From contig DATBKQ010000123.1 of assembly GCA_036555825.1 (NCBI GenBank), positions 1-45,998 of the forward strand: DNA of 45,998 nucleotides, read 5' to 3'. The position numbers and the translations under genes are program-made. The notes under the pieces are model-generated. The model did no database searches. It saw nothing but the letters and a program-made list of their open reading frames with translations, and had not been told where the DNA came from. Below, one piece after another: positions 11,816 to 45,052 of the stretch (its first letter is position 1; the number at the start of each line of letters is the position of its first letter). The DNA comes from Acetobacteraceae bacterium (GTDB taxonomy: Bacteria; Pseudomonadota; Alphaproteobacteria; Acetobacterales; Acetobacteraceae).

Positions 11816-13272
11816 CAGACGTGTGTTCCGTCCTCGCCCAGGTTCAGGTCGATCCGCAGCTTCAGCATCAGCGGGGTCTCCGGGTGGTCCGCCAGCACCA
11901 CGCCCGGCACCGCGCCGCCGATGTGCACGCCGTGCCTGGTATCGATCGCCAGATCCGATCCGAGGAAGTCGAAATACACCTCTGCCCCGTTCGGCCAGGC
12001 GGTCACCGGGAAGCCCGGTTGGCCGGTGTGGCAGAGCTTGTTCACCACGCCCTGCACCACCTTGTGGACCTTCAGCAACTCGGCGCGGCCGGTCAGTTCC
12101 AGGAACATCCGGCGATAGAATTCGCGCAGAACCGGCAGCCCGCCGCGCAGCACCATCGATGACACAACCGGGTTGCGCAGCAGTTGCTCATCGGGCGGGG
12201 CGAACAGTTCCAGCCGCGCACGGTTGTAGCCTGAATCGGCGATGCGGACCGGGCCCTCGCAGAACAGGGAAAGGCCGAGCGTCTTGCCGAGAAACGGATC
12301 GCGCGGGAACACCGCGCGCACGTTGTCGATGAGCAGCGCCTGGCCCGGCGGTGTCGCCGTGGCCGAGACCCGGTCCAACACCTGGCTCAGGTAGAAATGC
12401 GCGACATTCTCCGCGATGGCGAGCTCGGTCGCGGGCACGACGTAAGGGGTGCAGCCGTAGCGGCCGAGGATGGCCAGCTCGTCCTGGTCGAAGTCGCCGA
12501 TGCAGTGCACCGCGACCGACGGGCTGACGCAGCGCAGGCTGCCGAGAAACAGATGCAGCCAGCCCGCATCGCGCTGGCGGAGATAGAATGCGAGCACGGC
12601 GTCGCCGCCCGACGATGGTACTTCCGGAGCCGGCACGGTCGCACCCGTCCGGGGCAGCCAGGCGCCGGACAGCGGGCGCATGTGGACCACGTAATTGTGG
12701 ATCGCCTGGTCGATCGACCCAGCGATCGGCCCGGTGCGTCCGGCGACCTGGTGGGTCATTGCCGTGAGATAGCGCAGCATGCCGGAGCGCGTGGCGATGG
12801 TGGTGTCGGGATTCGAGAGAACGCAATCGCGGACATTGTGTGCGACGGCTTCGCCATACGCCTGCACCATCGCGTCGTGCACGGCGGGCGTGTCGCCGAT
12901 CCGGTTCCGGGTCGCGGTATAGACGATGTCGGCCGGCAGCGGTGTCGCGAACGGATCGGCCTCGAACACCATGTCCGACGGATCGATCAGCAGCACATTG
13001 GCGTAGCGTTCGCCATGCCGCAGCAGGAAATCCAGATAGCTGAAGTAGCGGCTCGCCTTGGCCGCCATGCGCGGCTGTGCCGATGGTGCGCTGCGCTCGA
13101 CCATGACGCCGAGAGCGCGAAGCCGGCGGATGGTTTCCGCGGCAACGTCTCGCACCAGCAGGCCAATATCGCCGGCGAAGCCCGTGCCGCGCAGCGAGGC
13201 GACGAACGGCTCGAGCCGGCGCATCGGCAGCGCCGTGCAGGCAGCCAGGACGAGGTTCTTCGAGCCATTCAT
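11815..13272 (-). CDS. Hypothetical protein with two tandem GT-A-like (nucleotide-diphospho-sugar-transferase-like) modules
   Basis: 485 aa. The halves align with each other (LVLAAC..FVASLRG..LLIDPSDMVFEADPF versus AVLAFY..FLGSLRC..LLIDNVRAVFPRDPF). Its stop overlaps the downstream start. Its start is 9 nt after the cca stop. Functional assignment is weak. Confidence 0.6.
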   Translation of the reverse strand: MNGSKNLVLAACTALPMRRLEPFVASLRGTGFAGDIGLLVRDVAAETIRRLRALGVMVERSAPSAQPRMAAKASRYFSYLDFLLRHGERYANVLLIDPSDMVFEADPFATPLPADIVYTATRNRIGDTPAVHDAMVQAYGEAVAHNVRDCVLSNPDTTIATRSGMLRYLTAMTHQVAGRTGPIAGSIDQAIHNYVVHMRPLSGAWLPRTGATVPAPEVPSSGGDAVLAFYLRQRDAGWLHLFLGSLRCVSPSVAVHCIGDFDQDELAILGRYGCTPYVVPATELAIAENVAHFYLSQVLDRVSATATPPGQALLIDNVRAVFPRDPFLGKTLGLSLFCEGPVRIADSGYNRARLELFAPPDEQLLRNPVVSSMVLRGGLPVLREFYRRMFLELTGRAELLKVHKVVQGVVNKLCHTGQPGFPVTAWPNGAEVYFDFLGSDLAIDTRHGVHIGGAVPGVVLADHPETPLMLKLRIDLNLGEDGTHV

Positions 13273-15956: not shown

Positions 15957-16074
15957 GTCTCCGTCTCCATCCCTGCCGGTCTTTAATCCATGGCGCCGAT
16001 ATAGGAAGCATCCCCCGGCACGTGAAAGTGCTTATATGGAAGCTTGGTAAGTTTTCTCCGGAGTGCACCGCTGT

Positions 16075-17083
<1,009 letters not shown>

Positions 17084-17091
<8 letters not shown>

Positions 17092-18016
17092 CGGCTCGGC
17101 TCACGCTGCGGCGGAAGCCAGGCGCGCCGAGGCGCTCGGGGCACGGCTGCCGCCGCTACTGGTGGCGGCGGAGCGGGTGGCGGCGACCGTGGCCCAAGGG
17201 GTGCATGGGCGGCGCCGGGTGGGACAGGGCGACAGCTTCTGGCAGTTCCGCCGCTTCGTCGCCGGCGACCCGATTGCGCGCATTGACTGGCGGCAATCGG
17301 CGAAGTCGGGCCGGCCGGTGCCGGACGGCTGGTTCATCCGCGAGACCGAGTGGGAGGCGGCGCAGACCGTCTGTCTGTGGCGCGACACCTCGGCCTCGAT
17401 GCGCTGGCGTTCGCGCGCCGCCGCGGTGGAAAAGCGCGAACGCGCCGGCCTCTTGCTGCTGGCGCTCGCGTCGCTGCTGCTGCGCGGTGGCGAGCGGGTG
17501 GCATTGATCGCCCCTGGGATCGCCCCTGGGATCGCCGCTGGGATCGCGCCCGGCGCGCGGCCGGTCTCGGGCCGCGCCGGGCTTGACCGGCTGGCGGAGA
17601 CGTTGGGCGCGCAGGCGAGCGACGACGCGGGCCTGCCGCCGCAGGTGCCGGTGCCGCGGCATGCGCGGGTGGTGCTGTTCGGGGATTTCCTTTCTCCGCT
17701 CGAGGAGATCCAGGCGGCGGTCGGCCGGCTCGCGGGGATCCCGGTGAGCGGTTACCTGTTGCAGATACTTGATCCGGCCGAGGCCGATCTGCCGTATAGT
17801 GGCCGCATTCGCTTCCGCGGATTGGAACGCGAGGGCGATACGTTGATCCCCCGCGTGGAGGGTGTGCGCGAGGAATATGGCCGGCGCCTGGCCGCGCAAC
17901 AGGAGGGTTTGGCGGCGATCTGCTCGGCCGCCGCATTCGGCTTTGCGATCCACCGCACCGATCATTCGCCGGAAACGGCCTTGCTCGGGCTTTATACGGC
18001 TTTGACTGCCCGATGA
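17084..18016 (+). CDS. DUF58 domain-containing protein
   Basis: HGRRRVGQGDSFWQFRRFVAGDPIARIDWRQSAK is the hallmark DUF58 block. TTG start overlaps the moxR stop by 8 nt. Confidence 0.85.
17511..17546 (+). repeat. In-frame 12-nt tandem repeat x3 (CCCCTGGGATCG, CCCCTGGGATCG, CCGCTGGGATCG) inside the DUF58 gene
   Basis: Read directly. Encodes APGIAPGIAAGIAPG. Confidence 0.9.
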
Positions 18017-20700
18017 TATTCGCCGCGCCTTGGATTCTGCTCGCATTGCCCGCCCTGCCGCTTTTGTGGTGGCTGCTTCGCGTCACTCCCCCGGCGCCGC
18101 GCAGCGAGAACTTCCCGGCGATCCGGCTGCTGATGGGGCTGCATGCCCGCGAGGAGACGCCGGCGCGCACACCGTGGTGGCTGCTGCTGCTGCGCATGGT
18201 TGCGGCGACCTTGGTGATCGTCGCGCTGGCGCGGCCGGTGCTGGATGCGGGCTCGATCCTGCCGGGTTCGGGCCCGGTGCTGCTGGTGGTGGACAATGGC
18301 TGGGCGGCGGCCGGCGACTGGCCGCGGCGAATGCAGGCGGCCAATACGGTGTTGGATCGCGCCGAGCGCGCCGGGCGCCAGGTCGCGCTGCTCGCGACGG
18401 CGCCGGACGAGACGGGCGCCGCACCGCAGGCGACCGCGCCGCTGCCGGTCCCTGACCTCCGCCCGAGACTGGCGGCGCTACATCCTGAGCCGTGGCCGCC
18501 GGATCGCACGACCGCCGCGGCGGCGCTGGCTGCCTGGCACCGACCCGGAACGGCGGTGGTCTATCTCGGCGACGGCCTGACACATGGCGGGGATTTCTCT
18601 GGCTTCGCGGCGGCATTGGCGCAGACAGGAACGGTGACCGAGCTGCGCAGCCGGACGGCGCCTGCGCGGTTGCTGCTGCCACCGCGGAACGAAGCGGACC
18701 GGCTGGTGGCCCGGGTGTCTCAGGCCCCGCAGCCGCTGGCAAGCCAGGCGGCCGTGCTGGCCCAAAGTGGCGACGGTCGCACCTTGGCGCGCGCCGTCGT
18801 TGACCTGCCAGCCGGGGCCAGCGAGGCTACCGCCGCGATCGCCCTGCCCCCTGAACTGCGCAACCGGCTGAACCGCCTGGTGCTGGAAGGTCCGCCGAGC
18901 GCGGGGTCCGTCGTGCTGCTGGACGAGCGGTGGCGCCGGCGGCCGGTCGGCTTGCTGGCCGGCGACCTTGCCACCGCCGACACCCCATTCGCTGGCTCGC
19001 TCTACTACCTGCGCCGGGCGCTGCTACCCTACACCGAGGTGCGCGAGGCGGACCTGGCGACGCTGCTGAAACGCGAGGTGTCGGTGCTGATCCTGGCCGA
19101 TCGGCCGCTGCCGAGGGGCGCCGAGAGGGACGCGCTGACGAAGTGGGTGGAACAAGGCGGGCTGCTGATCCGCTTCGCCGGTCCGCGCACGGCGGAGCAA
19201 CCGATCGGCGAGACTGACCCGCTGATGCCGGTCAAGCTGCTGGGCGGCGACCGGCAGCTTGGCGGCGCGCTGTCCTGGGCCGAACCGGCCGGCGTGGCGC
19301 AATTCAGCGCCAGCTCGCCGTTTGCCGGCCTGACCGTGCCGGACGAGGTCAGGGTGAGCCGGCAGGTGCTGGCCGAGCCATCCGCCGACCTCGCCAGCCA
19401 CACCTGGGCGGCACTGGCCGACGGGACCCCGCTGGTGACCGAGGCGGCGCGCGGGGCGGGCCGGATCGTCCTGTTCCACGTGACCGCCAATGCCGACTGG
19501 TCCAACCTGCCGCTGTCCGGGCTGTTCGTGGACATGCTGCGCCGGCTGGTGGCGCTGTCGGTGGGGGTGGCTCCGACATCGGACAACACGGTACTGGCGC
19601 CGGCCGAGACGCTCGATGGCTACGGCCTGCTGTCGGAGCCGCCACAGGCCGCCACCGGGTTGCCGGCGAGCGAGATCGCCAGCACCGTCGCCTCACCGCG
19701 ACACCCGCCCGGCTTGTACGGACCGGAGAACGGGCGCCGGGCGCTGAACCTGTCGGCCAGCCTGCCGGCGCCGGAGGCGGCCCCGGCGGTGGCGGGCGCC
19801 CGGATCGAGGACTACGCTGCCGCCGTTCCCGAACACGCGCTCGGGCCGCCGCTGCTGGCGGCAGCCGTCCTGCTGCTGGCGCTCGACCTGCTGATCGCGC
19901 TGGGGCTGCGGGGTTTGCTGCGGCCGGGCAGGGTGGGGGCGGCCGTCCTGCTGGCGGGTTTGATGGCCGTGCCGGGGGCGCACGCGCTGGAAACCGACAC
20001 CAACCCGGCGCTGGCCACGCGGCTCGGTTACATTGTCACCGGCGACGGCCAGTTGGACCAGGTGTCGCGCAGCGGGCTGGAGGGCCTGTCGGAATACGTC
20101 AACCGCAGGACGGCCGCGACGCTGGTGGAGCCCGACGCGGTCGAGCCCGGCAAGACCGACCTCAGCTTCTATCCGCTGCTCTATTGGCCGATCGCCTCCG
20201 ATGCGCAGCCGCTGTCGACGGACCAGGCGGCGGCGTTGAACGACTACATGAGCCGCGGCGGGATCATCCTGATCGACACGCGGGATTCCGGTTCGGGTGC
20301 CGGGTTCGCGCCGGGTGCCGAGGCGGCGTTGCAGCGGGTGGCGCAAGGCCTGGTGGTGCCGCCGCTGGCGCCGCTCACCACCGAGCACGTGCTGGCGCGC
20401 GCCTTCTACCTGTTGCAGGATTTCCCGGGGCGCTACACCGGCGACACGGTCTGGGTGCAACGCGATCAGGACCGGGCCAACGACAGCGTCAGTCCGGTGA
20501 TCATCGGCGGCAACGACTGGGCCGCGGCCTGGGCGGTGGACGATGCCGGACGCAATCCATACGCGGTGATACCGGGCGGGTCGCGGCAGCGGACGCTCGC
20601 CTATCGGTTCGGGGTCAATCTCGTGATGTACGCGCTGACCGGCAACTACAAGGGCGACCAGGTGCACGTGCCGGCGATATTGCAGAGGCTTGGGCAGTGA
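18013..20700 (+). CDS. Membrane protein with N-terminal double-TM (BatA_N-type) domain and C-terminal DUF4159-like domain
   Basis: ATGA overlap with the DUF58 gene. MIFAAPWILLALPALPLLWWLLRVTPPAPR...FPAIRLL is the aerotolerance-type N-terminal anchor. C-terminal FYPLLYWPIA...LNDYMSRGGIILIDTRD. 895 aa. Confidence 0.75.
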   Translation: MIFAAPWILLALPALPLLWWLLRVTPPAPRSENFPAIRLLMGLHAREETPARTPWWLLLLRMVAATLVIVALARPVLDAGSILPGSGPVLLVVDNGWAAAGDWPRRMQAANTVLDRAERAGRQVALLATAPDETGAAPQATAPLPVPDLRPRLAALHPEPWPPDRTTAAAALAAWHRPGTAVVYLGDGLTHGGDFSGFAAALAQTGTVTELRSRTAPARLLLPPRNEADRLVARVSQAPQPLASQAAVLAQSGDGRTLARAVVDLPAGASEATAAIALPPELRNRLNRLVLEGPPSAGSVVLLDERWRRRPVGLLAGDLATADTPFAGSLYYLRRALLPYTEVREADLATLLKREVSVLILADRPLPRGAERDALTKWVEQGGLLIRFAGPRTAEQPIGETDPLMPVKLLGGDRQLGGALSWAEPAGVAQFSASSPFAGLTVPDEVRVSRQVLAEPSADLASHTWAALADGTPLVTEAARGAGRIVLFHVTANADWSNLPLSGLFVDMLRRLVALSVGVAPTSDNTVLAPAETLDGYGLLSEPPQAATGLPASEIASTVASPRHPPGLYGPENGRRALNLSASLPAPEAAPAVAGARIEDYAAAVPEHALGPPLLAAAVLLLALDLLIALGLRGLLRPGRVGAAVLLAGLMAVPGAHALETDTNPALATRLGYIVTGDGQLDQVSRSGLEGLSEYVNRRTAATLVEPDAVEPGKTDLSFYPLLYWPIASDAQPLSTDQAAALNDYMSRGGIILIDTRDSGSGAGFAPGAEAALQRVAQGLVVPPLAPLTTEHVLARAFYLLQDFPGRYTGDTVWVQRDQDRANDSVSPVIIGGNDWAAAWAVDDAGRNPYAVIPGGSRQRTLAYRFGVNLVMYALTGNYKGDQVHVPAILQRLGQ

Positions 20701-20725
20701 GGGCGGCGGGGCCCCCTCCCGCCAT

Positions 20726-20748
20726 CCCCCTCCCGCGAGGGGAGGGGG
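20726..20748 (+). repeat. Intercistronic C-run/G-run hairpin CCCCCTCCC-GCGAG-GGGAGGGGG
   Basis: 9-bp perfect stem read directly, between the stop at 20700 and the ATG at 20760. A partial copy GCCCCCTCCCGCC lies at 20711-20723. Confidence 0.6.
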
Positions 20749-20759
20749 GGTCTACGTAG

Positions 20760-22865
20760 ATGCATCCCGTCGAGGCGATCGCCGCGCTGCGGTTCGAACC
20801 ACTGCTGCCGATTGGGGTGATCGCGGCGCTGGCTGCGCTGGCGCTGCTGATCGTGGCGCTGGCGGCGTTCCGCCGGGCGCGCGGCACCGCCTGGCGGCTC
20901 GCCGCCTTCGCCGTGCTGCTGCTGTGGCTTGCCGGCCCGCGACTTGTGCAGGAGAGCCGCGAGAATCTGCCGGACGTCGGGCTGCTGGTGCTTGATCAGA
21001 CCGCGTCGATGCAGGTGGGTGAGCGGGGGCGACTGGCCGAGGCGGCACGCGCCGCGCTGAGCCAGGAGGCCGCAAAGCTGCCCGACCTCGAGCTGCGCAC
21101 TGTCACCGTGCCGGAGAGCGGCGATGCCGGCACGCGCCTGTTTGCCAGCATCGACCGGGCGATGGCCGACATCCCACGGTCGCGTTTCGCCGGGACGATC
21201 GCCATCACCGACGGTCAGGTGCACGACATCCCCGAGGCCGCTCCCGGCGGCGCGCCGCTCAATGTGCTGATCCCGGCGGCGGGCGAGGAAACCGATCGGC
21301 GGCTGCGCGTCATCGAGGCGCCGAGTTACGGGATCGTCGGGAAGTCGGTTACCTTGCGGGTGGCGGTAGAGGACCTGGGGGTGGCGCACCCCACGCCGTC
21401 AGCCAATCTGACGATCCGGCGGGACGGCGAGCCGCCGCGCGTCGAGAGCGTGCCGATCGGCGCCGAGCAGCGGATCGAGGTGCCGATCACCCGTGCCGGC
21501 CCGACGGTCGTGGAGCTGTCCGCGAGCCCGTTGCCCGGCGCGGTCAGCAATATCAACAACCGCGCGGTGGTCGAGATCAACGGCGTACGCGACCGCCTGC
21601 GGGTGCTGCTGATCTCGGGTGAACCGCATCCGGGCGAGCGCACCTGGCGGCGCCTGCTGAAGGCCGATCCCTCGGTTGATCTGGTGCACTTCACCATCCT
21701 GCGTCCGCCCGAGAAGGACGACCTGACGCCGCTGAACGAGCTGGCGCTGATCGCCTTTCCGGTGCGCGAGCTGTTCCTGGACAAGATCAACGAGTTCGAT
21801 CTGATCATCCTCGACCGTTTCCAGAACCGCGGGCTGTTGCCGATGCCGTACATCGCCAACATCGCGGAGCATGTGCGGGCGGGGGGTGCGTTGCTGCTGA
21901 GTGTCGGGCCGGAGTTCTCCGGTGCTTCCAGCCTGGCGGCGACACCGATCGGCCAGGTGCTGCCGGGGGGCCCTGCCTCGATCAGTGCCGTGGTGGATGG
22001 GCAGTTCCGGGCGAGGGTCACCGATCTCGGCCAGCGCCATCCGGTGACGGAGGGTCTGGCCGGGGCCAATCCCCCCACCGATCCGAACGCCGCCCCGGAC
22101 TGGGGATCGTGGTACCGCCGCATTCAACCGGCGGACGTGCACGGCGAGGCGCTGCTGGGCACGCGCGACGGCCAGCCGCTGCTGCTGCTGGACCGGGTCG
22201 GCAAGGGGCGGGTCGCACTGCTGCTGTCCGACCAGATCTGGCTCTGGTCGCGCGGCCACCAGGGCGGCGGCCCGCAGGCGGAACTGCTGCGCCGCGTGGC
22301 GCACTGGCTGATGCAGGAGCCGGAGCTGGAAGAGAACGCGCTGACCGCGCATGTCGCCGACGGCAAGCTGTCGGTCGAGCGGCGCTCGACCGATCCGTCG
22401 CCGCCTGGCCAGGTGACGGTGACCGATCCCGACGGCAAGACCCAGACCCTGACGCTGCGACCGGTGACACCGGGGACAGCACGAGCCTCGCTGGCGGCGC
22501 CGACGCCTGGGGTGTGGCAGGCGAGCGACGGGTCGCGCAGCGCGTATGCCGCGGCGGGCGCGGCCAATCCGCTGGAATTCGCCGATCTGCGGGCCACCGC
22601 GAGTTTGCTGCGGAAGCTGGCGCGCACCTCTGGCGGCGGGGTGCACTTTATCGGCAGCGGCAAGCCGGGGGCGCCGCCGGATGTGCCGGTCCTGCGCCGG
22701 ACCGAGCCCGACCGGTCGGCGGCGGGCGGCTCGTGGATCGGGCTGGAGCGGCGGCACGACCATGTGGTGACCGGCATTGCGTCGCTCACCCTGTTGCCGT
22801 CCTGGGCAGCACTGCCGCTGATGCTGGGGCTGATCGTGCTGGCGTGGCGGCGCGAGGGGACCTGA
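20760..22865 (+). CDS. Membrane protein with vWA-like (MIDAS DxTxS) region, fourth gene of the MoxR module
   Basis: 701 aa. N-terminal TM helices, then VGLLVLDQTASMQVGERG resembling a vWA MIDAS strand. C-terminal TM anchor LTLLPSWAALPLMLGLIVLAW. Confidence 0.7.
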   Translation: MHPVEAIAALRFEPLLPIGVIAALAALALLIVALAAFRRARGTAWRLAAFAVLLLWLAGPRLVQESRENLPDVGLLVLDQTASMQVGERGRLAEAARAALSQEAAKLPDLELRTVTVPESGDAGTRLFASIDRAMADIPRSRFAGTIAITDGQVHDIPEAAPGGAPLNVLIPAAGEETDRRLRVIEAPSYGIVGKSVTLRVAVEDLGVAHPTPSANLTIRRDGEPPRVESVPIGAEQRIEVPITRAGPTVVELSASPLPGAVSNINNRAVVEINGVRDRLRVLLISGEPHPGERTWRRLLKADPSVDLVHFTILRPPEKDDLTPLNELALIAFPVRELFLDKINEFDLIILDRFQNRGLLPMPYIANIAEHVRAGGALLLSVGPEFSGASSLAATPIGQVLPGGPASISAVVDGQFRARVTDLGQRHPVTEGLAGANPPTDPNAAPDWGSWYRRIQPADVHGEALLGTRDGQPLLLLDRVGKGRVALLLSDQIWLWSRGHQGGGPQAELLRRVAHWLMQEPELEENALTAHVADGKLSVERRSTDPSPPGQVTVTDPDGKTQTLTLRPVTPGTARASLAAPTPGVWQASDGSRSAYAAAGAANPLEFADLRATASLLRKLARTSGGGVHFIGSGKPGAPPDVPVLRRTEPDRSAAGGSWIGLERRHDHVVTGIASLTLLPSWAALPLMLGLIVLAWRREGT

Positions 22866-36618: not shown

Positions 36619-36781
36619 CAATCTCGCAACTTGACTCGGGGGCAAGAAATCTGATTGGTAACACTTACGTTACCGGCGCCGCCGTTTAGATTGGGTTTCG
36701 TGAGCCGGCGATGTCAGACTTTGCAGCCGTCTCAGAATTTGACCAGGACGATTTCGCCTGATCCCGCAGGAATGGCAGAAA

Positions 36782-37471
36782 ATGTTGGATGAGTTCGCCG
36801 AAGTCACGCTGCTGATCGCCGATCGGGCCACCCTGTTCCGTCACGGCCTGCTCGGTCTGCTGAAGGAGCACCGCCCAGGCTGGTGCTGTGCCGAGGCCGG
36901 TACGTTGGACGCGGCGCTTGCGCATTTGCGGGCGGAACCGGTCGATCTGATGCTGTACGACGTGCAGCTTGGCGGCGAGGCGGAGATCGCCAGCCTGCGA
37001 TGCCTGCGCGCCGAGTTTCCGCAGCAGTTGATCGTCGCCATGTCGGACAATGGCGACCGTGCGGCCATCCTGGAGTCGCTTGCCGCCGGGGCGAACGGCT
37101 ATGTCCTCAAGTCCACCACCCTGTCGCAACTGTTGCGCGCGATCGAGACAGTGCTGTCGGGAGCAGTGTTCGCGCCGGCCACGCTGACCGGTGCTGCGCC
37201 CACGCCCGCCAGGGTTGCCGCGCCCGATGTCAGCCCGTTGGTCGCCGGTCTGACCGAGCGGCAGATCGAGGTGTTCCGGCTGTTGTCGGAAGGCTGTGCC
37301 ACGAAGACGATCGCGCGGCGGCTGGGGCTGGCGATCGGGACGGTCAAAGTGCACCTGGCGTCGATCTATCGCGCGCTCGACGCACACAACCGCGTCGAGG
37401 CGCTGGCCAAGGCGCGCGGTGGCGTCCTGCATCCGGTGCCGGCACGCGCCTCGGAGTTGCTCGCCGCCTAG
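36782..37471 (+). CDS. LuxR/FixJ/NarL-family response regulator (receiver plus HTH), no adjacent kinase
   Basis: Receiver LLIADRATLFRHGL...DLMLYDVQL...VAMSD...GYVLKS. C-terminal LTERQIEVFRLLSEGCATKTIARRLGLAIGTVKVHLASIY. AGGAA precedes the ATG. Confidence 0.85.
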   Translation: MLDEFAEVTLLIADRATLFRHGLLGLLKEHRPGWCCAEAGTLDAALAHLRAEPVDLMLYDVQLGGEAEIASLRCLRAEFPQQLIVAMSDNGDRAAILESLAAGANGYVLKSTTLSQLLRAIETVLSGAVFAPATLTGAAPTPARVAAPDVSPLVAGLTERQIEVFRLLSEGCATKTIARRLGLAIGTVKVHLASIYRALDAHNRVEALAKARGGVLHPVPARASELLAA

Positions 37472-37512: not shown

Positions 37513-37965
37513 CTAGCTCTGCATCGGAAAGCAGGCCTGCGCCGTCAGGGATTTGTTCGAGAGCATCGGCAGGATGTTCGGGACGACCGTGGTGAACGTG
37601 TAGGTGATGTTGACCTGAGCGACATGGCTCGACATCCCGCTGCACGCGCCGCTGGCGGCGTTCGCGGTCAGGGTCAGATTCGATGCGGTGAGCGTGATAC
37701 CCCAGTTGGCCGCGAGGCCTTCGATGTAGCTCTGTGCATTCTGCTGGCTGAAGGCCCCGCCCGATGCGCAGGAACCGGCGAGGACGCCGATGCAGCGGGC
37801 TCCCTGAGCCGCCGCGGTCTCCAATGCCTCGCGCGCCCACAGCGCGCGGCCGAACTCGATGATGGCGAAGACACACATCAGCATCGCCACGGCGACGATG
37901 CCAAACTCGACCGAGGTTATCGCGCGGCGATCGTGTCGCAGGCGTACGGCAGGCCGGTCGCTCAT
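37513..37965 (-). CDS. TadE-like pseudopilin (Flp pilus assembly)
   Basis: 150 aa. N-terminal RRAITSVEFGIVAVAMLMCVFAIIEFGRALW is the TadE/TadG-type hydrophobic segment. ATG at 37965. The rest of tracked ORF 37513-38931 is out-of-context sequence. Confidence 0.8.
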   Translation of the reverse strand: MSDRPAVRLRHDRRAITSVEFGIVAVAMLMCVFAIIEFGRALWAREALETAAAQGARCIGVLAGSCASGGAFSQQNAQSYIEGLAANWGITLTASNLTLTANAASGACSGMSSHVAQVNITYTFTTVVPNILPMLSNKSLTAQACFPMQS

Positions 37966-38531
37966 TGTGTCTGCACGACCGATCCCGCGGTCATTGTCCC
38001 GCTGGTGGAGAACGCATAGCCGGCGAAGATGGGGCTGAAGCTGTAGCTTGCGCTGATGGTGACGAATTTGCCGGCGGTACTGCTGCTGCCGGTGCAGGTG
38101 GTGGTGGAACCGCAGGCGATGGCGCTGCCCCAGGTCCAGGACGTGGGCGATCCGCTCAGGCAATAGCAACTGTCGGCGTTGGCAGCGGTGCCGCTGGTCG
38201 TCGGGGTGGCACCGCCGGTGGTGGTCGCGGTCGGCCCGTTGTTCACCACCACGGTGACGGTGGCCGGCGGGTTGCCGTTGCCTTTCGCCACCAGGCTCGC
38301 GACCGCGCTCGCCAGTGTCGTGCCGCTGGTGGAACTGACCTGGCCGCTGTTCACCAGCGCGTAGTTCGCGCCGAGTGCGAGCGCCGCCTGCAGCCGGCTC
38401 CAGGTATAGACGGCGGATCCCAGGTCCACGATGCCGGCCAACGCCAGGGTGAACACCGGCACGAGCAGCGCGAATTCCACCGCCGCGACCGCGCGGCGCG
38501 CCCGTAGCAGGCACGGCAGAAGCCAGGTCAC
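37962..38531 (-). CDS. TadE/TadF-like pseudopilin
   Basis: 189 aa. RRAVAAVEFALLVPVFTLALAGIVDLGSAVY. Thr/Gly/Ser/Cys-rich C-terminal half. Overlaps the downstream gene by 4 nt. Confidence 0.8.
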   Translation of the reverse strand: MTWLLPCLLRARRAVAAVEFALLVPVFTLALAGIVDLGSAVYTWSRLQAALALGANYALVNSGQVSSTSGTTLASAVASLVAKGNGNPPATVTVVVNNGPTATTTGGATPTTSGTAANADSCYCLSGSPTSWTWGSAIACGSTTTCTGSSSTAGKFVTISASYSFSPIFAGYAFSTSGTMTAGSVVQTQ

Positions 38532-38534
38532 AGG

Positions 38535-40367
38535 CTATTGCACCAGCAGGGCGGTGGCCGACCCGATGTTCGCGGCGAAGCCGCTGCATGTGCTTGCGGT
38601 GGCCGATCCGCCGGTGAAGTAGACCGCGTTGGCGACGATCTCGAAGCAGGAGGACCCGCCGGTATTGGCGCCGCCGCTGAACTCGATGCTGGAGTTGGGG
38701 AAGTAAAGGACGCCGGCGTAGGTTCCGCTGGTGCCCCCGCTGAACATCTGCGCATAGGTCGTCACGGCGCTCGTGTAGTTGCTGGCCATCAGCACGCCCG
38801 GAATGCCGTTGGTTGCTCCGCTCGCAGGGGCCTGCAGATTTGCCGTCGAGCCGCCCGAGAATGTGTTGGTGCCATTGTCCACGATCGTCATGTGCGTCGT
38901 GCCGCTGCCGCATGGAGCGGGCGAACCGCACATGCTCGCACCGCTGGACACGACAAGATTGCCATTGATCTCCAGCAGGCTGTTACCGAAATAGGTCGGC
39001 CCGGAACTCAGCGTGACGTTGCCATTGACGTAGTACGTTCCGTCGCCGAACGTGAAGGTTCCGCCGCCGGAGCCAAGGCCGAGCGTGCTGTAAAAGTTGG
39101 TCGTCGGCGCGATGCTTATCGTCCGCCAGTTGACGGTCCCGGACAGGTTCACGACGCCGGACACCTGGTACACGTTGGCGGTAAGGGTGGTGGTGGAACC
39201 GCCGCCCGTGGTGATGCCGCCATTGACGTAAATCGTGCTGCCATTGGCGAGCGTCAGCACTCCGCTGCCACCGACACTGATGCCGCCACCGATCCAGAAA
39301 CTACCGGCATTCATGACCAGTTGATTGCTGCCGGTGGAGATGCCGCCGTTGATATACCAACTGCCGGCCGTACCATCGATCTGCAGGAGGTTGCCGCTGA
39401 CGGTGACGCCGTTCGTGACCGTGTAGTTACAGCCCGCTGTCGCCGAGATGTGCACGCTGACACCGCCCGAGACGCTGATGGACTTGATCGCGTAGCTGCC
39501 GCTGCTGCACGGCAACGTGCCCTTGTTATAGACGCCACCGGTGCCCGAGTAGTACGGATAGGTGGGATCGCTCGGCCCGGAGGGGCTCCAATTGAATTGC
39601 AGCGCGACCGTGCTTGCCGGCGTTGTCGGGTTGGACACGGTCCCGCTCAGGCTCGACAGGTTGCTGAATGCCGCCTGAACCGAGGAATTGCCGGCCACCG
39701 GGTCGGTTATGCTGCCGCTGTAGTTCTGGTTGATATTGTTGCTGACAGGCGTGGTCGTGATCGTCGCGCCGCCGCTGGTCGTGGCACTGCCTTTGGCATA
39801 GACGCCCTGCACCCGCATCGTGGCGCCGCCGCTGATCGCCAGGTTGCTTCTGGAGGCAATTGCGCAGCTCGATCCGGTGAGCGTTGCTCCTGCGTCCTCC
39901 TTGACGGCGGTGGTGGTGCCGCCGCTTGCCAAGCCGATAAGACAGGCCTGGCCGGTGGATTTCAGCTCGGCGTATGCGCTTGCGGCGACACTGGCCTGGC
40001 TCAGGCCGGTGTTGACCTGCTTTGACAGCCCTAGCGGGACGTTGCTGGTGACCGTCACCTGGACCGCCTGGTTGCCGTCGCCGGTCGGCGAATTCACCAG
40101 CGCCCCCACCGCGGCGCTGGAAGCGATGCCGTTCAGCGTCGCCACGCGCGAGATGGCGGCGTTCATGGCATCCGTGCTGCTGTTCTTCACATAGGCAAGC
40201 GCGCCGCTATAGGCCGCGGCATCGGCGACGCGCTGCACCTTCACCTTGGTCAGCAGGGCGTCGCCGTATTCCACCGCCAGGCCGGTGACGCCGATCAGCA
40301 TCGGGAATGCCCAGGCGGCCAGCACGCTGACGCTGCCTTCGCAGGCATGGCGGAACGATTTCGGCAT
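38535..40367 (-). CDS. tadG: TadG-like pilus-associated protein with Gly/Thr/Ser-rich beta-helix-like repeats
   Basis: 610 aa. N-terminal GSVSVLAAWAFPMLIGVTGLAVEYGDALLTKVKVQRVADAAAYSGALAY is the TadG_N type. Repeats of the form YINGGISTGSN / WIGGGISVGGSG / YVNGGITTGGGS follow. Confidence 0.75.
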   Translation of the reverse strand: MPKSFRHACEGSVSVLAAWAFPMLIGVTGLAVEYGDALLTKVKVQRVADAAAYSGALAYVKNSSTDAMNAAISRVATLNGIASSAAVGALVNSPTGDGNQAVQVTVTSNVPLGLSKQVNTGLSQASVAASAYAELKSTGQACLIGLASGGTTTAVKEDAGATLTGSSCAIASRSNLAISGGATMRVQGVYAKGSATTSGGATITTTPVSNNINQNYSGSITDPVAGNSSVQAAFSNLSSLSGTVSNPTTPASTVALQFNWSPSGPSDPTYPYYSGTGGVYNKGTLPCSSGSYAIKSISVSGGVSVHISATAGCNYTVTNGVTVSGNLLQIDGTAGSWYINGGISTGSNQLVMNAGSFWIGGGISVGGSGVLTLANGSTIYVNGGITTGGGSTTTLTANVYQVSGVVNLSGTVNWRTISIAPTTNFYSTLGLGSGGGTFTFGDGTYYVNGNVTLSSGPTYFGNSLLEINGNLVVSSGASMCGSPAPCGSGTTHMTIVDNGTNTFSGGSTANLQAPASGATNGIPGVLMASNYTSAVTTYAQMFSGGTSGTYAGVLYFPNSSIEFSGGANTGGSSCFEIVANAVYFTGGSATASTCSGFAANIGSATALLVQ

Positions 40368-40603
40368 TGGATGACCTCATCCTGATTTTCACGACTGCCA
40401 GCCGGGGGGCCGTACTCGGCCGGGCCCCGGCCGGCTCTTACAGAACAAACGCCACGGATTGGTATCATTTCTGGCGGGTTCCGGTTGCCTAGGCCGAACG
40501 GATTAGGCCGGCTGGCGCCGCCGGACAGACCATCAGGCGGAATGAATTTGCCGCTTCGTTTCGATAAGTTCCACCGCGACGCCAACCGGGAAGGAATTCT
40601 CCC

Positions 40604-41371
40604 ATGCTTGTCTTGCGGGTCGGTAACGCCACATTCTGCCGCGGCGGCAATGCCACGGTGCTCCAGCAGCACGGCATCCGCAGCGAACAGGCGGCAACAG
40701 GCCGCGAGGCGTTGGAATTCCTTCGCCTCTACGATTACGACCTGGTGCTGATGGACTTGCAGTTGCCGGATGTTCCGGCGTACGAGGTCGTACGCATGAT
40801 GCGCGCGGCTTCGTTGAAAACTCCCGTCGTGATCATGTCGGACACCGCGACCGTGCAGGCCAAGGTGAAGGCGCTCGACCAGGGGGCGGACGACTTTCTG
40901 CTCACACCGTGCGACGCGGAAGAGGTCCTGGCGCGCATTCGCGCGGTCGTGCGGCGCAGCCAGGGCCATACCAACTCCACCCTGACGCTTGGCCCGGTCG
41001 AACTGCTGCTGGATCGCCGCGACGTTCGCGTGCACGGCCAGTCGCTGCATCTGTCGCGCCGAGAATACGCGGTGCTTGAACTGCTGTTCCTGAAGCAGGG
41101 CCACATCCTGAACAAGGGGGCGTTCCTTACCCATCTCTATTGCGGGATGGATGAGCCGGAGATGAAGACGATCGACGTGATCATCTGCCGGCTGCGCAAG
41201 AAGCTCGCCGTTGCGGGCGTGCCGTCGCTGATCGATACCGTGTGGGGCTGCGGCTACATTCTGCGCGACCCATCGGCCGATCAGCAGGACGACCGGCGCA
41301 CGATGAACAAGCAGCCCAGCCTGGAGCGGATCGAGACCGGCTGGTCGACCCGTGTCCCGATCGCGGCCTGA
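40604..41371 (+). CDS. CtrA-like OmpR-family response regulator with degenerate receiver active site
   Basis: Colinear with CtrA: LYDYDLVLMDLQLPD, GADDF, VVRRSQGH, LSRREYAVLELL, HLYCGMDEPEMKTIDVIICRLRKKL, IDTVWGCGYILRDP. Positions 7-9 read GNA (CtrA EDD) and position 101 is T (CtrA K). GGAAGGA precedes the ATG. Confidence 0.85.
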   Translation: MLVLRVGNATFCRGGNATVLQQHGIRSEQAATGREALEFLRLYDYDLVLMDLQLPDVPAYEVVRMMRAASLKTPVVIMSDTATVQAKVKALDQGADDFLLTPCDAEEVLARIRAVVRRSQGHTNSTLTLGPVELLLDRRDVRVHGQSLHLSRREYAVLELLFLKQGHILNKGAFLTHLYCGMDEPEMKTIDVIICRLRKKLAVAGVPSLIDTVWGCGYILRDPSADQQDDRRTMNKQPSLERIETGWSTRVPIAA

Positions 41372-42155
41372 CCATCAGCCGGCGCACGGACGAAGCGATC
41401 CCGCGCCGATCTTCATCGCGGCCAAGGACTGCCTGCTCGCCGGCCTGTTGCTGCTGACGGCAGCATCGGCCTGCGCACAGCCGGCCATGTCGCTATGCGA
41501 ACGGGCCGGGCACGAGGCGGAACAGCGATATGCGTTGCCGGCCGGGCTGCTCGCGGCGATAGGCCGGGTCGAAAGCGGCCAATGGGACCTGTCGCTCGGG
41601 CGCGTGGTGCCGTCGCCCTGGGCGATCGATGCCGCCGGCCAGTCGGACCTGGCCGACAGCAAGCAGGCCGCGCTCGATCACATGCGACAATTGCAGGCGA
41701 ATGGCGTGCGCAACATCGATGTCGGCTGTTTCCAGATCAACCTGCAGGCGCATCCGTTCGCCTTCGCCGACCTTGATCAGGCATTCGATCCCGGCGCCAA
41801 CGCACAATACGCGGCACGCTTCCTGACCCTGCTGCACGCACGCCTGGGCAACTGGGAAGATGCCGTCGCTGCCTATCATTCCGCCGCGCCCGAACGCGGC
41901 GTTCCCTATCGTCAGCTCGTGTTCGCCAACTGGTCCGCACCGGAAGGGTGGCAGCACGCGCTGTCCGGCGCTCCGGCGCTGGCAAGGCCCTCGGAGCCGG
42001 TCAGGGTATTCTCGATCGGCGGCAGCGAAATCCGGGTCTGGACACCGAGCGCTGCCGGCAGTGCCGCGTCGTTCATCGCCATCGCCGGCGTTTCGCCGGG
42101 GCCGCTGCCGCGCGTGATTGCAGGCACTCCGGGTCAGCGGCGGCCTGGGACCTGA
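41352..42155 (+). CDS. Lytic transglycosylase (SLT domain) with signal peptide
   Basis: LLAAIGRVESG (catalytic Glu context), ...NIDVGCFQINL..., AAYHSA. Leader LLAGLLLLTAASACA. The only start that preserves the leader is GTG 41352, which overlaps the regulator by 20 nt. Confidence 0.7.
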   Translation: MSRSRPDHQPAHGRSDPAPIFIAAKDCLLAGLLLLTAASACAQPAMSLCERAGHEAEQRYALPAGLLAAIGRVESGQWDLSLGRVVPSPWAIDAAGQSDLADSKQAALDHMRQLQANGVRNIDVGCFQINLQAHPFAFADLDQAFDPGANAQYAARFLTLLHARLGNWEDAVAAYHSAAPERGVPYRQLVFANWSAPEGWQHALSGAPALARPSEPVRVFSIGGSEIRVWTPSAAGSAASFIAIAGVSPGPLPRVIAGTPGQRRPGT

Positions 42156-42157
42156 GA

Positions 42158-43345
42158 ATGTTCCGCGACATGGACTGGCTGGACGAGAAACGTGCCCGCA
42201 TCTATTGCGCGGCGGCGGCAATCGCCCTGCTCGGCGCGTTCGCGCAGATGCTGCTCGGTCTGCATCATGGCTACGACGCGCACGGCGACCTGCTCGGCGG
42301 CGATTATTCGAGCTTCTGGGCCGCGTCGCGCCTGATCCTTCTGGGCCGACCGGCGGACGTCTATGTTCCCGCGCTGCATCACCTCGCGGAACTGCCCGTG
42401 CTGCGGAACAGCTATTCCGCGTTTTATTATCCTCCGACCTACCTGGTTCTGTGTCTCCCGCTGGCGCTGACGGCGTTCTTCCCGTCGTTGCTGTTGTTCC
42501 TCGGCACGACGGGAGCGGCCTTCGCGGCTGTGCTGTGGCGGATCCTGCGGGCGCCGTGGAGCTTCGTCGCCGTCCTGGCGTTTCCGGCGGTTTACATCGA
42601 CATAATGCCGGGCCAGAACGCATTTCTGACCGCGGCGATCCTTGGCTGCGGCCTCGGCCTGCTGGGCCGCCGCCCCGGAGTGGCCGGCGCGATTCTGGGC
42701 CTGATGGTGCTGAAGCCTCACCTGGCATTGGCCGTACCGGTCGCCTTGCTCGTGTCGCGACGCTGGCAGACGCTGATCTGCGCGGCAGCGTCGGCACTGG
42801 GGCTGGTCGCGATCTCGTACGCGCTGTTCGGCTGGGGAACCTGGGCGGCATTCCTTGCAAATGCGCACGAAGCGCGCGAGACCCTGGAACAGGGGACGGT
42901 GGGCTTCGACAAGATGCAGAGCACCTTTGCGCTGGCACGTCTTCTCGGGGCGAGCGTCCCTGCCGCCTACGCACTGCATTCCCTGACAGCGCTGACGGCG
43001 ATCTCGGCGTTGATCTGGGCGCAGCGGCAGCAGACGGGCGCGGCCGCGGAGCGGGCGCTGATCGTCATTGCCTGCCTGCTGATCACGCCGTTTTCACTGT
43101 TCTACGACATGGTCATCCTCGCCCTCCCCTTGGCGTGGATGCTGTGCGAGTGGCGGCTGCACGGATTCCCGCCTTGGTCGAAACTTTTGCTGTGCGCGGT
43201 CTTGCTTGCCCCGGCCGTGCATCTGTTCTGCGGACCCGGTCCATTCGCGCTGCCGATTCTTCTGGTGTTCGGTGCCTACATTTTGCGCCGCGTGCCGATT
43301 ACCCGTAATGCTCCGGCGTTTTCCTGGCACGGAGCATCCGCCTGA
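42158..43345 (+). CDS. Polytopic membrane glycosyltransferase, GT87/DUF2029-like (GT-C fold)
   Basis: 395 aa, about 9-11 TM segments. Periplasmic-loop Asp context GDLLGGDYSSFWAASRLILLG, GQNAFLTAAILGCGL, MVLKPHLAL resemble PimE-type DUF2029 proteins. ATG lies 3 nt after the SLT stop. Confidence 0.6.
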   Translation: MFRDMDWLDEKRARIYCAAAAIALLGAFAQMLLGLHHGYDAHGDLLGGDYSSFWAASRLILLGRPADVYVPALHHLAELPVLRNSYSAFYYPPTYLVLCLPLALTAFFPSLLLFLGTTGAAFAAVLWRILRAPWSFVAVLAFPAVYIDIMPGQNAFLTAAILGCGLGLLGRRPGVAGAILGLMVLKPHLALAVPVALLVSRRWQTLICAAASALGLVAISYALFGWGTWAAFLANAHEARETLEQGTVGFDKMQSTFALARLLGASVPAAYALHSLTALTAISALIWAQRQQTGAAAERALIVIACLLITPFSLFYDMVILALPLAWMLCEWRLHGFPPWSKLLLCAVLLAPAVHLFCGPGPFALPILLVFGAYILRRVPITRNAPAFSWHGASA

Positions 43346-43372
43346 TGGCAACCGCCAACTCCATGTCAACCA

Positions 43373-43387
43373 TTGAAACCATTTTAA
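43373..43387 (+). promoter_or_regulatory. Near-consensus CtrA box TTGA-N7-TTAA upstream of flp
   Basis: TTGAAACCATTTTAA read directly, 111 nt upstream of the GTG at 43498. Overlapping ACCAT half-motifs (TCAACCAT, GAAACCAT). This is the most AT-rich stretch of the region. Confidence 0.4.
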
Positions 43388-43497
43388 AACTGCCCGCGTG
43401 CTCATCTCCGCCCACAGGTCCTAGGTGCGCGACACCAAGCCCTGGCCGATACGGTTCGAAATACAGCACTCGGTCCATCAAAAGAGGAGCGACGCAC

Positions 43498-43662
43498 GTG
43501 ATCCACTACATGAAGAGCTGGATTGAGCTGAGGACCGACCGTCGCGCCGTGACCGCGCTGGAGTATGCGCTGATCGCCGGCGTCATCGTGGCCACCGTGG
43601 TCGTCGGATTTCAGACCTTGGCGAACAACCTCTCGAGCAAGCTGGCTCTCATCACATTCTGA
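43498..43662 (+). CDS. flp: Flp-family type IVb pilin
   Basis: AGAGGAG lies 8 nt before the GTG at 43498 (ATG 43510 is the alternative). Product ...MKSWIELRTDRRAVTALEYALIAGVIVATVVVGFQTLANNLSSKLALITF carries the Flp motif XXXXEY plus a hydrophobic helix. The tracked 105-aa ORF is over-extended. Confidence 0.85.
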   Translation: MIHYMKSWIELRTDRRAVTALEYALIAGVIVATVVVGFQTLANNLSSKLALITF

Positions 43663-43678
43663 CGCCGGACATAAGCGA

Positions 43679-44197
43679 GTGCATTTCGCCATGTCCCTCC
43701 ATTGGTCATCGATCCTCGCACTGGGATTGCTGGCGGTCAGCGCTGCCATCATGATTGCGGCGGCGGTGCACGATGTCATCGCCCGCACCGTGCCCAACTG
43801 GATGGCTGCAACGCTCGCGCCGATCGGCCTTTCGTTGCAGGTTCTGCAAGGTCATCCGCTGATGGCACTGCTCGTAGCGAGCATCGTGTTCCTGCTGCTG
43901 GCGTTCTGCTGGCGCTTCGGCTGGATCGGCGGTGGAGATGTCAAACTACTCGGCGCCACCGCACTGGTGGTGCCACCTGCCCAGATCGCCACATTCATCA
44001 CCGCGGTCGCTCTGACCGGCGCCGTATTGGCGATCGTCTATCTGGCTGGACGCAGGATCGTTGCCGCGCCCGATGCCCGCCGCCCAACGCGGCTGCTCGC
44101 GCGGGCCATCCGTGTCGAGCGTTGGCGCATCCGCCGCGGCGGTCCGCTGCCTTATGCCTGTGCCATCGCGGCCGGGTTCCTTTTCATCATCGCCTAG
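43679..44197 (+). CDS. cpaA: A24-family prepilin peptidase CpaA/TadV
   Basis: Two catalytic Asp contexts: AAVHDVIARTVPN and GGGDVKLLGA. 5-6 TM segments. ATG 43691 is an alternative start. Confidence 0.85.
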   Translation: MHFAMSLHWSSILALGLLAVSAAIMIAAAVHDVIARTVPNWMAATLAPIGLSLQVLQGHPLMALLVASIVFLLLAFCWRFGWIGGGDVKLLGATALVVPPAQIATFITAVALTGAVLAIVYLAGRRIVAAPDARRPTRLLARAIRVERWRIRRGGPLPYACAIAAGFLFIIA

Positions 44198-44209: not shown

Positions 44210-45052
44210 GTGATTCTGCGCATCATGTTCTTCGCCCTGATGGCCATCGGCCTGGTGGGCTTCGGTACCGTCGCCTGGGTCGCCACAAGGCCACCGGCGC
44301 CGCCGCCCGCGGCGGTCGCGGCGGCGCCGCCTGCAAAGGCGGTTGTCCTGACCGTTGTCCACGCGATGCGTGCCGGCAGCATGTTGAAACCCGAAGATCT
44401 CGCATCGAAAGAGATCTCGGCCGAGGATCACCGGCCCGACATGAGCGTCGATACGCCGGACGCACGGCATTCGCTGTCGGGTGCCATGGTGCGCCGCAGC
44501 CTGAGCGCCGGGGAAGCAATCCGAGGCGGCGATGTGATGCGTCCCGGCGACCATGGATTCCTGGCCGCGGTTCTCGCGCCCGGCATGCGCGCGGTGACGG
44601 TCGGTGTCGATGCTGTCACCGGGTCGGCCGGCCTCATCTGGCCCGGCGATCGGGTCGACCTGATCCTGACGCAGACCATTCAGGAGCAGCAGTTGCCGAT
44701 CGGGCGGCGGGTGGCGGCGGAAACCGTGCTGTCGGATGTGCGGGTGATCGCCATCGATCAGCAACTCGTGCAGGGCGCGGAGGCGAGCGGGCCGGATGCC
44801 CAGGCGCGCACCGTCACGCTGGAAGTGACGCAGGACCAGGCGGAGCGCGTCTCGGTCGCCACGCGTCTCGGCCGGCTCTCGCTCGCCGTTCGGTCGGCCG
44901 ATTCGGTGCCCGGCGCGAAGCTCGCCGCGGCACCGAACACGACCTGGGCGGTCGATGTCTCGCCCGCGCTCGGTTCGCAGGCGCCGACACCAACGCAGAA
45001 CACGATCCGGATCTTCCAGGGTTCCTCCGACGCAAAGGAGTTCAAGTTCTGA
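44210..45052 (+). CDS. cpaB: Flp pilus assembly protein CpaB/RcpC
   Basis: N-terminal TM anchor, SAF-like domain (GSMLKPEDLA...GEAIRGGDV), then GMRAVTVGVDAVTGSAGLIWPGDRVDLI. GGCGGAG precedes the GTG. Confidence 0.85.
   Translation: MILRIMFFALMAIGLVGFGTVAWVATRPPAPPPAAVAAAPPAKAVVLTVVHAMRAGSMLKPEDLASKEISAEDHRPDMSVDTPDARHSLSGAMVRRSLSAGEAIRGGDVMRPGDHGFLAAVLAPGMRAVTVGVDAVTGSAGLIWPGDRVDLILTQTIQEQQLPIGRRVAAETVLSDVRVIAIDQQLVQGAEASGPDAQARTVTLEVTQDQAERVSVATRLGRLSLAVRSADSVPGAKLAAAPNTTWAVDVSPALGSQAPTPTQNTIRIFQGSSDAKEFKF

Follow-up and report, generated by a model that had tools for sequence, protein, structure and literature searches.

A CtrA-like pseudo-receiver regulator linked to the Tad pilus locus in uncultured Acetobacteraceae

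Introduction

In Alphaproteobacteria, CtrA serves as the model for how phosphorylation drives the control of the cell cycle and motility, and the Tad pilin gene is a textbook example of a gene under its control. How, then, would a CtrA-like protein operate when it is encoded within a Tad pilus locus and lacks the residues on which phosphorylation depends? This question is raised by a stretch of 45,998 nucleotides from an Acetobacteraceae bacterium (contig DATBKQ010000123.1 of assembly GCA_036555825.1; G+C content 68%), referred to here in its entirety as the window, in which a gene for a CtrA-like atypical response regulator (hereafter the regulator) stands between divergent tadG-tadE genes and the flp pilin gene. 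The answer proposed here, with moderate confidence and on the basis of sequence comparison, is that the regulator is a CtrA-derived pseudo-receiver protein that acts independently of phosphorylation on direct repeats to control the Tad pilus genes and its own expression. The regulator belongs to a family that is under purifying selection, and both its linkage to Tad genes and the repeats upstream of flp are conserved across related loci.

Results and Discussion

An intact response regulator without a phospho-acceptor pocket

The open reading frame (ORF) of the regulator starts at the first start codon available downstream of an in-frame stop; an N-terminal extension restoring an acidic pocket is therefore impossible. 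Both domains of an OmpR/PhoB-family protein were recovered above the Pfam cut-offs, with Response_reg (PF00072) covering residues 11-113 (69.6 bits) and the C-terminal winged-helix domain Trans_reg_C (PF00486) covering residues 145-220 (63.4 bits). The same architecture was seen in the AlphaFold2 model (mean predicted local distance difference test score, pLDDT, of 88), which has a normal (beta-alpha)5 receiver fold followed by a winged helix, and in the Foldseek matches, which were OmpR/PhoB-family structures that included the atypical regulators HP1043, GlnR, and RitR. The ratio of nonsynonymous to synonymous substitution rates (dN/dS) relative to close orthologues was 0.02-0.08, showing strong purifying selection; the gene is not a decaying copy.

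Identity to canonical CtrA is 40-50%, position for position, and approximately 50% in the DNA-binding domain. The initial annotation had called the protein CtrA-like, which holds insofar as NF045991, the CtrA equivalog, is its top-scoring NCBIfam model, but the score of 261.8 bits misses the curated cut-off of 350 and the alignment begins only at residue 15. Other members of the family scored 225-250 bits with this model, compared to 366-421 bits for five canonical CtrA representatives. The regulator is CtrA-like but not an equivalog of CtrA. Proteins of the family are labeled 'CtrA' in IMG and as generic response regulators in NCBI.

A MAFFT alignment of the regulator with the five canonical representatives was ungapped in the N-terminal region and around residues 51 and 101, bearing out the position-for-position correspondence from Met1 that had been proposed from the translation alone. 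In this alignment, the canonical MRVLLIEDD is replaced by MLVLRVGNA, LLDLNLPD by LMDLQLPD, and TKPF by LTPC, so that the residues described initially (loss of the acidic residues at positions 7-9, retention of the Asp51 equivalent, and loss of Lys101) were all found as described. The comparison was extended to 116 full-length family members and 120 canonical CtrAs (Table 1). The acidic pair and the lysine are gone in all 116 members, leaving none with a complete phospho-acceptor pocket. Since the alignment and the family counts agree, the substitutions are a real, in-frame property of the whole family and not an artifact of sequencing or start choice.

Table 1. Residues at key receiver positions in the regulator's family and in canonical CtrA
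Position	Family (116 full-length members)	Canonical CtrA (120 sequences)
7	Gly 115/116	Glu 120/120
8	N/R/K/H/Q/T	Asp 120/120
9	A/T/S	Asp 119/120
51	Asp 112/116	Asp 120/120
79	Ser 53, Ala 62	Ser 118, Thr 2
98	Phe 105/116	Tyr 120/120
101	T/V/M/A/S, Lys 0/116	Lys 120/120

A 2025 review defines a pseudo-receiver as a receiver lacking any one of five conserved residues (PMC12632262), and the regulator is a pseudo-receiver by this definition because it has lost the lysine and both acidic residues, three of the five. Given established receiver chemistry, standard phosphorylation and dephosphorylation should not be possible once the Mg2+-binding acidic pair and the switch lysine are gone, in agreement with the initial prediction that this receiver cannot be phosphorylated normally. 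With Asp51 present in the regulator and in nearly all of its relatives, the family falls outside the aspartate-less receiver (ALR) subset; the atypical regulator GlnR likewise keeps its aspartate, in a structural role (cited in PMC12632262). Residues K87, D96, D97, E107, R111, R117, and R118 show little or no variation in either the family or canonical CtrA, and mapping by homology suggests that they form the alpha4-beta5-alpha5 dimer face of OmpR/PhoB proteins.

Three cysteines were also observed. Cys103 (codon 40910-40912), which gives T-P-C in place of K-P-F, occurs in 111 of the 116 members and in 43 of 45 sister-subfamily sequences; Cys180 (codon 41141-41143), in the transactivation loop, and Cys216 (codon 41249-41251), which replaces an arginine in the wing, are both specific to the regulator's own subfamily and fixed in it.

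DNA-binding domain and C-terminal tail

The recognition helix of the regulator reads DVIICRLRKK, compared to DVFICKLRKK in CtrA (F193I and K196R), and the wing reads WGCGY compared to WGRGY (R216C). Ile193, Arg196, and Cys216 are fixed differences between the 116 family members and the 120 canonical sequences. Such fixed changes in both helix and wing suggest an altered DNA specificity and would fit a shifted half-site preference.

The C-terminal tail, of approximately 30 residues, varies in sequence and length across the family; in the regulator it ends in ...VPIAA. A terminal Ala-Ala was found in 99 of 115 full-length family members and in 100 of 115 canonical CtrAs. In Caulobacter CtrA, the terminal Ala-Ala is required for ClpXP-dependent turnover. 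Because this end is kept as in canonical CtrA, proteolytic control of the regulator is a reasonable idea.

Subfamilies, phylogeny, and distribution

A search of 5.8 billion protein clusters identified 1089 relatives of the regulator at E <= 1e-20, and the best 120 of these all have the N-terminus MLVLRVG. When the library was clustered at 50% identity, the whole family collapsed into a single representative (385 bits), with the next representative at 239 bits. Several of the next-ranking representatives also begin ML.L..G and lack the lysine, and a profile search with them delineated subfamilies B (MLVLHVGEKPFRR), C (MLLLQIGTKPLRR), D (MLLLQIGDRPLRR), and E. Among 45 sequences from these distant subfamilies, Gly7 was found in 45, Asp51 in 43, Lys101 in none, Cys103 in 43, and Arg196 in 45. 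Subfamilies B, C, and D are approximately 40-45% identical. In a rough neighbor-joining tree, built without bootstrapping, the pseudo-receiver subfamilies form a single clade apart from canonical CtrA, whose own clade holds both Caulobacter and the Rhodospirillales member Azospirillum. One canonical representative (P0124) is Caulobacter-like, with its best 120 matches in Caulobacterales. A tblastn search for canonical ctrA, confined to the window and more than 90 related loci, returned just the pseudo-receiver genes and unrelated OmpR-family genes. The separate, deep clade favors an old paralogue, short of proving that it co-occurs with canonical ctrA.

When GTDB species were scanned, each by a single genome, the family was present in 47 of them. 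All 47 are represented by metagenome-assembled genomes (MAGs), mostly labeled Acetobacteraceae, from soil, peat, and lakes. In a plasmid collection, no family member was found, only canonical CtrA on chromids or plasmids of Azospirillum, Methylobacterium, Sphingomonas, and others. Canonical ctrA is annotated there on 37-95-kb plasmids of Methylobacterium and Mesorhizobium, on 170-850-kb plasmids of Sphingobium and Sphingomonas, and on chromids of Azospirillum, where the copy of A. brasilense Sp7 adjoins fliI.

Linkage to the Tad locus

The order tadE-tadE-tadG, divergent from ctrA-like-SLT-(GT87)-flp-cpaABC, was seen in most of the 47 species, so that the Tad linkage noted in the window extends to the family, and it extends to distant subfamilies as well. 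Considering evaluable loci only, an SLT gene lies immediately 3' of the regulator gene in 26 of 39 species loci (and also in loci L091-L093), tadE/tadG genes lie divergently upstream in 23 of 40, and flp/cpaA/cpaB lie downstream in 19 of 29. Subfamilies B, C, and D share the frame tadG/E, regulator, SLT, and flp-cpa. A further group, typified by locus L035, has the Tad cluster upstream on the other strand, together with a secretin, a TadG-VWA protein, an SLT-like gene, and a TPR protein. The window ends within the secretin gene; the orthologous locus L005 continues with the secretin, CpaE, CpaF, and TadB/C. Because the SLT gene overlaps the 3' end of the regulator gene by 20 nt, the two probably form one operon.

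The surroundings of the regulator gene consist of an ABC transporter, a NarL-type regulator, the Tad genes, SLT, and GT87. Neither an adjacent histidine kinase gene nor any kinase or Hpt gene within 10 kb of the regulator gene was found. At its locus the regulator is thus an orphan response regulator; a distant kinase is possible.

Conserved direct repeats upstream of flp and of the regulator gene

The initial annotation had also placed a CtrA-type box at flp. This was borne out in part: a TTGA-N7-TTAA occurs at 43373-43387, but there is no exact TTAA-N7-TTAA in the window, the TTGA match is not conserved in relatives, and the conserved register is shifted by 2 nt, with the variant half-sites GAAAC and WTAAC. 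Twenty-four loci share TGAAACC-N6-(T/A)TAAC, with TG(G/C)TT..T.TCC 9-10 nt further on. The spacing between this element and the downstream flp gene is fixed: measured to a position 12 nt within flp it is 112-140 nt, which corresponds to approximately 100-130 nt from the true start. The two AAC cores of this element are 11 bp apart, the same period as in the CtrA box, and the variant box GAAA-N7-(T/A)TAA-C is conserved both at flp and near the regulator gene.

A position weight matrix (PWM) was trained on the flp sites and used to scan approximately 0.85 Mb of loci on both strands at a threshold of 14 bits. The flp element of the window scored 47.7 bits. All matches of at least 14 bits were upstream of flp or of the regulator gene, with none elsewhere in the scanned loci, and the matrix recovered flp sites outside its training set in loci L007, L016, and L049. 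It also identified a bottom-strand site approximately 33 nt upstream of the regulator ATG in eight more distant loci, where the sites read TGAAAC-N6-AAAAC-N10-GGTAAATTCCGCC. Nearly all loci share a conserved region directly 5' of the regulator gene. In the sister subfamilies, both sites were found in L091 (subfamily B), and three half-sites spaced by 11 bp were found in L092 (subfamily C).

In Caulobacter, a near-consensus box at -35 mediates activation of the Tad pilin gene pilA by CtrA, and the box at fliL is AAAA-N7-TTAA (PMC11264516). Because Caulobacter CtrA drives pilA from such a position, the logic proposed here for flp has a direct precedent.

Three other readings of sequences in the window were discarded. 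A sigma-54 reading of TGGCGGAATTTACC did not stand up to visual inspection, the spacing being wrong, an EcfG-type reading (GGAAC-N16-17-CGTT) was rejected for spacing that is inconsistent across loci, and a loose-pattern match at 36684-36699, upstream of the NarL-type gene, was rejected as a binding site since it is not conserved and overlaps a promoter-like -10. Separately, CCTAGGCC and TTAGGCC repeats lie 14 bp apart at 40488-40509 in the intergenic region between tadG and the ctrA-like gene, and two or three copies of them are conserved in most related loci.

Proposed mechanism

The regulator is probably a phosphorylation-independent local switch for the pilus genes. With its intact (beta-alpha)5 fold, the charged residues of alpha4-beta5-alpha5, and a complete winged helix, it could form a dimer independently of phosphorylation, and this dimer would bind the direct repeats TGAAAC-N6-WTAAC, spaced by 11 bp. 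Binding at the flp promoter would switch on the Tad pilus genes. The second repeat, on the opposite strand in the regulator's own upstream region, faces the divergent tadG-tadE-tadE genes, and binding there might exert feedback on the regulator's own expression. Output would then be set not by a kinase but by the amount of regulator, through transcription, autoregulation, and possibly ClpXP acting on the C-terminal Ala-Ala. We infer the identity of the repeat-binding protein, the sign of regulation, dimerization, and proteolysis from the sequence features described above.

Several observations weigh against this proposal. The window's own upstream copy of the repeat (40536-40575) is degenerate and falls under the PWM threshold. 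The repeats resemble weak canonical CtrA boxes, and canonical CtrA, if present, could be the binder. Part of the repeat conservation could reflect a sigma-factor promoter because TGAAAC resembles an extracytoplasmic function (ECF)-type -35 element. Asp51 is retained in all but four of the 116 members, so a modification there could persist. Subfamily E is not Tad-linked, and four close relatives (loci L010-L013, 89-92% identical) keep the regulator under strong selection (dN/dS of 0.02 for L010 compared to the window) with no adjacent Tad genes; there, at approximately 8.9-10.8 kb in each locus, the NarL-type regulator is kept as well and a sigma-70-family gene lies downstream on the other strand. 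Finally, every member of the family derives from an uncultured genome.

Alternative explanations

Of the alternatives, one that is unlikely but deserves to be taken seriously is that these genomes retain no CtrA-type gene besides that of the regulator, which would not be a paralogue but a descendant of the ancestral CtrA, freed of phospho-control as the CckA-ChpT relay decayed in Acetobacteraceae. It would then be a broader regulator of motility, envelope, and pili, for which the Tad locus is simply the chromosomal home. In the Acetobacteraceae cluster, the CckA-ChpT-CtrA relay is reported to be incomplete to varying extents, with no ctrA orthologue in Granulibacter (Brilli et al. 2010), which makes this alternative a real one. 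The IMG annotation of the family as CtrA, the retained C-terminal Ala-Ala, and the strong selection on the gene in L010-L013 in the absence of adjacent Tad genes are all consistent with it. However, the family lies in a separate, internally deep clade (subfamilies approximately 40% identical) and not inside the canonical clade of the unbootstrapped tree, and the tight, ancient Tad synteny suggests a local role. In addition, a six-peptide genome scan gave only MAG records for the family, which also counts against this alternative.

Only a low probability is attached to a further scenario. In those Acetobacteraceae and Rhodospirillales lineages where the relay decayed, an ancient CtrA-derived clade may have assumed control of the pilus part of the CtrA regulon, with the phospho-switch replaced by Ala-Ala-dependent proteolysis, by redox chemistry at Cys103, or by both; in some genomes, its members may be the sole CtrA-type regulator.

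It is rather improbable that canonical CtrA binds the flp and tadG boxes, with the pseudo-receiver protein competing for them or forming mixed dimers and thereby uncoupling the pilus genes from the cell-cycle phosphorelay. Canonical CtrA boxes have the same 11-bp spacing and 3' TTAAC/ATAAC half-site as the repeats, and given the Caulobacter pilA and fliL precedent, canonical CtrA could in principle use the repeats too. The dimer-face residues that the regulator has in common with canonical CtrA and the similarity of the two DNA-binding domains (approximately 50% identity) are likewise compatible with this reading. On the other hand, the 5' half-site is invariably GAAAC and not TTAAC, and together with the fixed helix and wing changes this fits a distinct specificity better; moreover, the presence of canonical CtrA in these genomes is presumed.

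Less probable still is a receiver that senses another input, through non-standard modification of Asp51, a ligand, or redox chemistry, as in RitR, at Cys103 beside the former active site, and is therefore switchable rather than constitutive. The near-universal retention of Asp51 and of Cys103, the latter extending to the sister subfamilies, would be explained by such a function, and the structural matches included RitR, a response-regulator derivative that senses redox state through a cysteine. Redox or metal sensing by Cys103, Cys180, and Cys216, the latter two family-specific, is possible on this basis. A second, apparently phosphorylatable NarL-type regulator is also a conserved neighbor. 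Against this, the ligand or partner is hypothetical, the conserved cysteine may be purely structural, and phosphoryl transfer is not expected once the acidic pair and the lysine are lost.

A decaying, non-functional ctrA copy, as loss of the catalytic residues might imply, has a negligible probability and was rejected in view of the dN/dS of 0.02-0.08, the hundreds of intact relatives with the same family-wide substitutions, the confidently modeled fold, and the conserved synteny and upstream elements.

Comparison with known systems

The CtrA-derived pilus regulator proposed here resembles CtrA of Caulobacter vibrioides and other Alphaproteobacteria in its OmpR-type architecture and Ala-Ala end, and the way in which CtrA activates the Tad pilin gene, through a direct repeat at -35 with 11-bp spacing, mirrors the logic suggested for flp. 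Unlike CtrA, the regulator scores below the equivalog cut-off (262 compared to 350 bits), lacks the acidic pair and the lysine, belongs to a separate clade, carries the F-to-I and K-to-R helix and R-to-C wing substitutions, has a candidate site whose 5' half is GAAAC instead of TTAAC, and is encoded inside a Tad cluster with no nearby kinase.

Atypical OmpR/PhoB regulators work independently of phosphorylation and are in most cases constitutive dimers (PMC12632262). GlnR of actinomycetes, HP1043 of Helicobacter, ChxR of Chlamydia, and RitR of streptococci resemble the regulator in having kept the receiver fold and lost catalytic residues, and GlnR shares the retained aspartate. These proteins differ from it in belonging to unrelated lineages and regulons, and none is derived from CtrA or tied to pili. 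PprB of Pseudomonas aeruginosa offers a different parallel, as its response-regulator gene lies in or next to a Tad cluster and its product activates flp-tad-rcp; however, PprB belongs to the NarL/LuxR type and receives its phosphoryl group from the kinase PprA, and in type it resembles the NarL-type regulator encoded at 36782-37471 in the window and not the ctrA-like regulator.

The literature searched on CtrA in Acetobacteraceae, CtrA paralogues, pseudo-receivers, and Tad regulators contained no description of this family, in line with the initial impression that no such paralogue had been reported, and the 2025 pseudo-receiver review mentions neither CtrA nor pili (PMC12632262). While atypical OmpR-family pseudo-receiver regulators are already known, a CtrA-derived, Tad-tied clade with its own operator-like repeats appears to be new. 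In this large sister clade, maintained by selection, the CtrA-type DNA-binding module and the connection to pili have been kept and the phospho-acceptor chemistry has been dropped, providing a natural case of a master-regulator module that has been split off and rewired. The mechanisms by which pseudo-receivers are activated have been called a mystery (PMC12632262), and the class now gains a well-defined family with candidate DNA sites. The family also gives a handle on Tad pilus regulation in the abundant uncultured Acetobacteraceae of soil and freshwater, and it indicates that automatic 'CtrA' labels are misleading when cell-cycle circuitry is inferred from metagenomes.

Features of the locus and neighboring genes

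The coordinates of the features discussed in this study are collected in Table 2.

Table 2. Annotated features of the regulator gene and the surrounding Tad locus, in window coordinates
Feature	Position	Strand	Basis and remarks
NarL/LuxR-type response regulator gene	36782-37471	+	Pfam REC and GerE; flanks the Tad cluster
Divergent operon: tadG (38535-40367), tadE (37962-38531), tadE (37513-37965)	37513-40367	-	Pfam Tad, TadE; gene calls on identical metagenome contigs
Degenerate second copy of the element	40536-40575	-	Top strand GGCGGAATGAATTTGCCGCTTCGTTTCGATAAGTTCCACC; 30-70 nt upstream of the regulator ATG
ctrA-like atypical response regulator gene	40604-41371	+	255 aa plus stop; ORF and translation
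Pseudo-receiver domain, residues 1-119	40604-40960	+	G7-N8-A9 for E-D-D, D51 and S79 kept, F98 for Tyr, T101 for Lys, C103 for Phe
Winged-helix DNA-binding domain, residues 145-220	41036-41263	+	Pfam Trans_reg_C
Variable C-terminal tail, ending Ala-Ala	41273-41368	+	Tail comparison across the family
SLT-type lytic transglycosylase gene	41352-42155	+	Pfam SLT
GT87-family glycosyltransferase gene	42158-43345	+	Pfam GT87, 115 bits; start inferred
Conserved element upstream of flp	43372-43412	+	Core direct repeat TGAAACCATTTTAAAAC at 43374-43390, then GTGCTCATCTCC; 124 nt upstream of the GTG
flp pilin gene	43498-43662	+	Pfam Flp_Fap; start regions aligned across loci
cpaA prepilin peptidase gene	43679-44197	+	Pfam Peptidase_A24
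cpaB/rcpC	44210-45052	+	Pfam RcpC
cpaC secretin gene	45052 onward to 45998, runs off the window	+	Translation

The true start of flp is the GTG at 43498, giving a protein of 54 aa. The mechanically called ORF (43345-43662, 105 aa) overcalls the gene, and the conserved promoter element falls inside its spurious 5' extension. Locus L007 has three tandem flp genes (11760-13031 of that locus), where the flp-trained matrix matches upstream of the third copy. The GT87 membrane glycosyltransferase gene between SLT and flp differs in presence and orientation among related loci; its product might glycosylate the pilin or the envelope.

The NarL/LuxR-type gene is a conserved upstream neighbor of the regulator gene, found in 25 of 35 evaluable loci. 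Its product looks phosphorylatable because the Asp, Ser, and Lys are kept, although the pocket reads A-D instead of D-D. Its upstream region contains a conserved sigma-70-like promoter (CTTACG-N17-TAGATT) near 36690 and an inverted repeat, GTAAC-N6-GTTAC.

At a greater distance, positions 16063-22865 of the forward strand hold an apparent operon encoding a MoxR AAA ATPase, a DUF58 protein, a BatA/DUF4159 protein, and a 701-aa protein with no Pfam match, which looks like an ordinary Bat/MoxR-type cluster.

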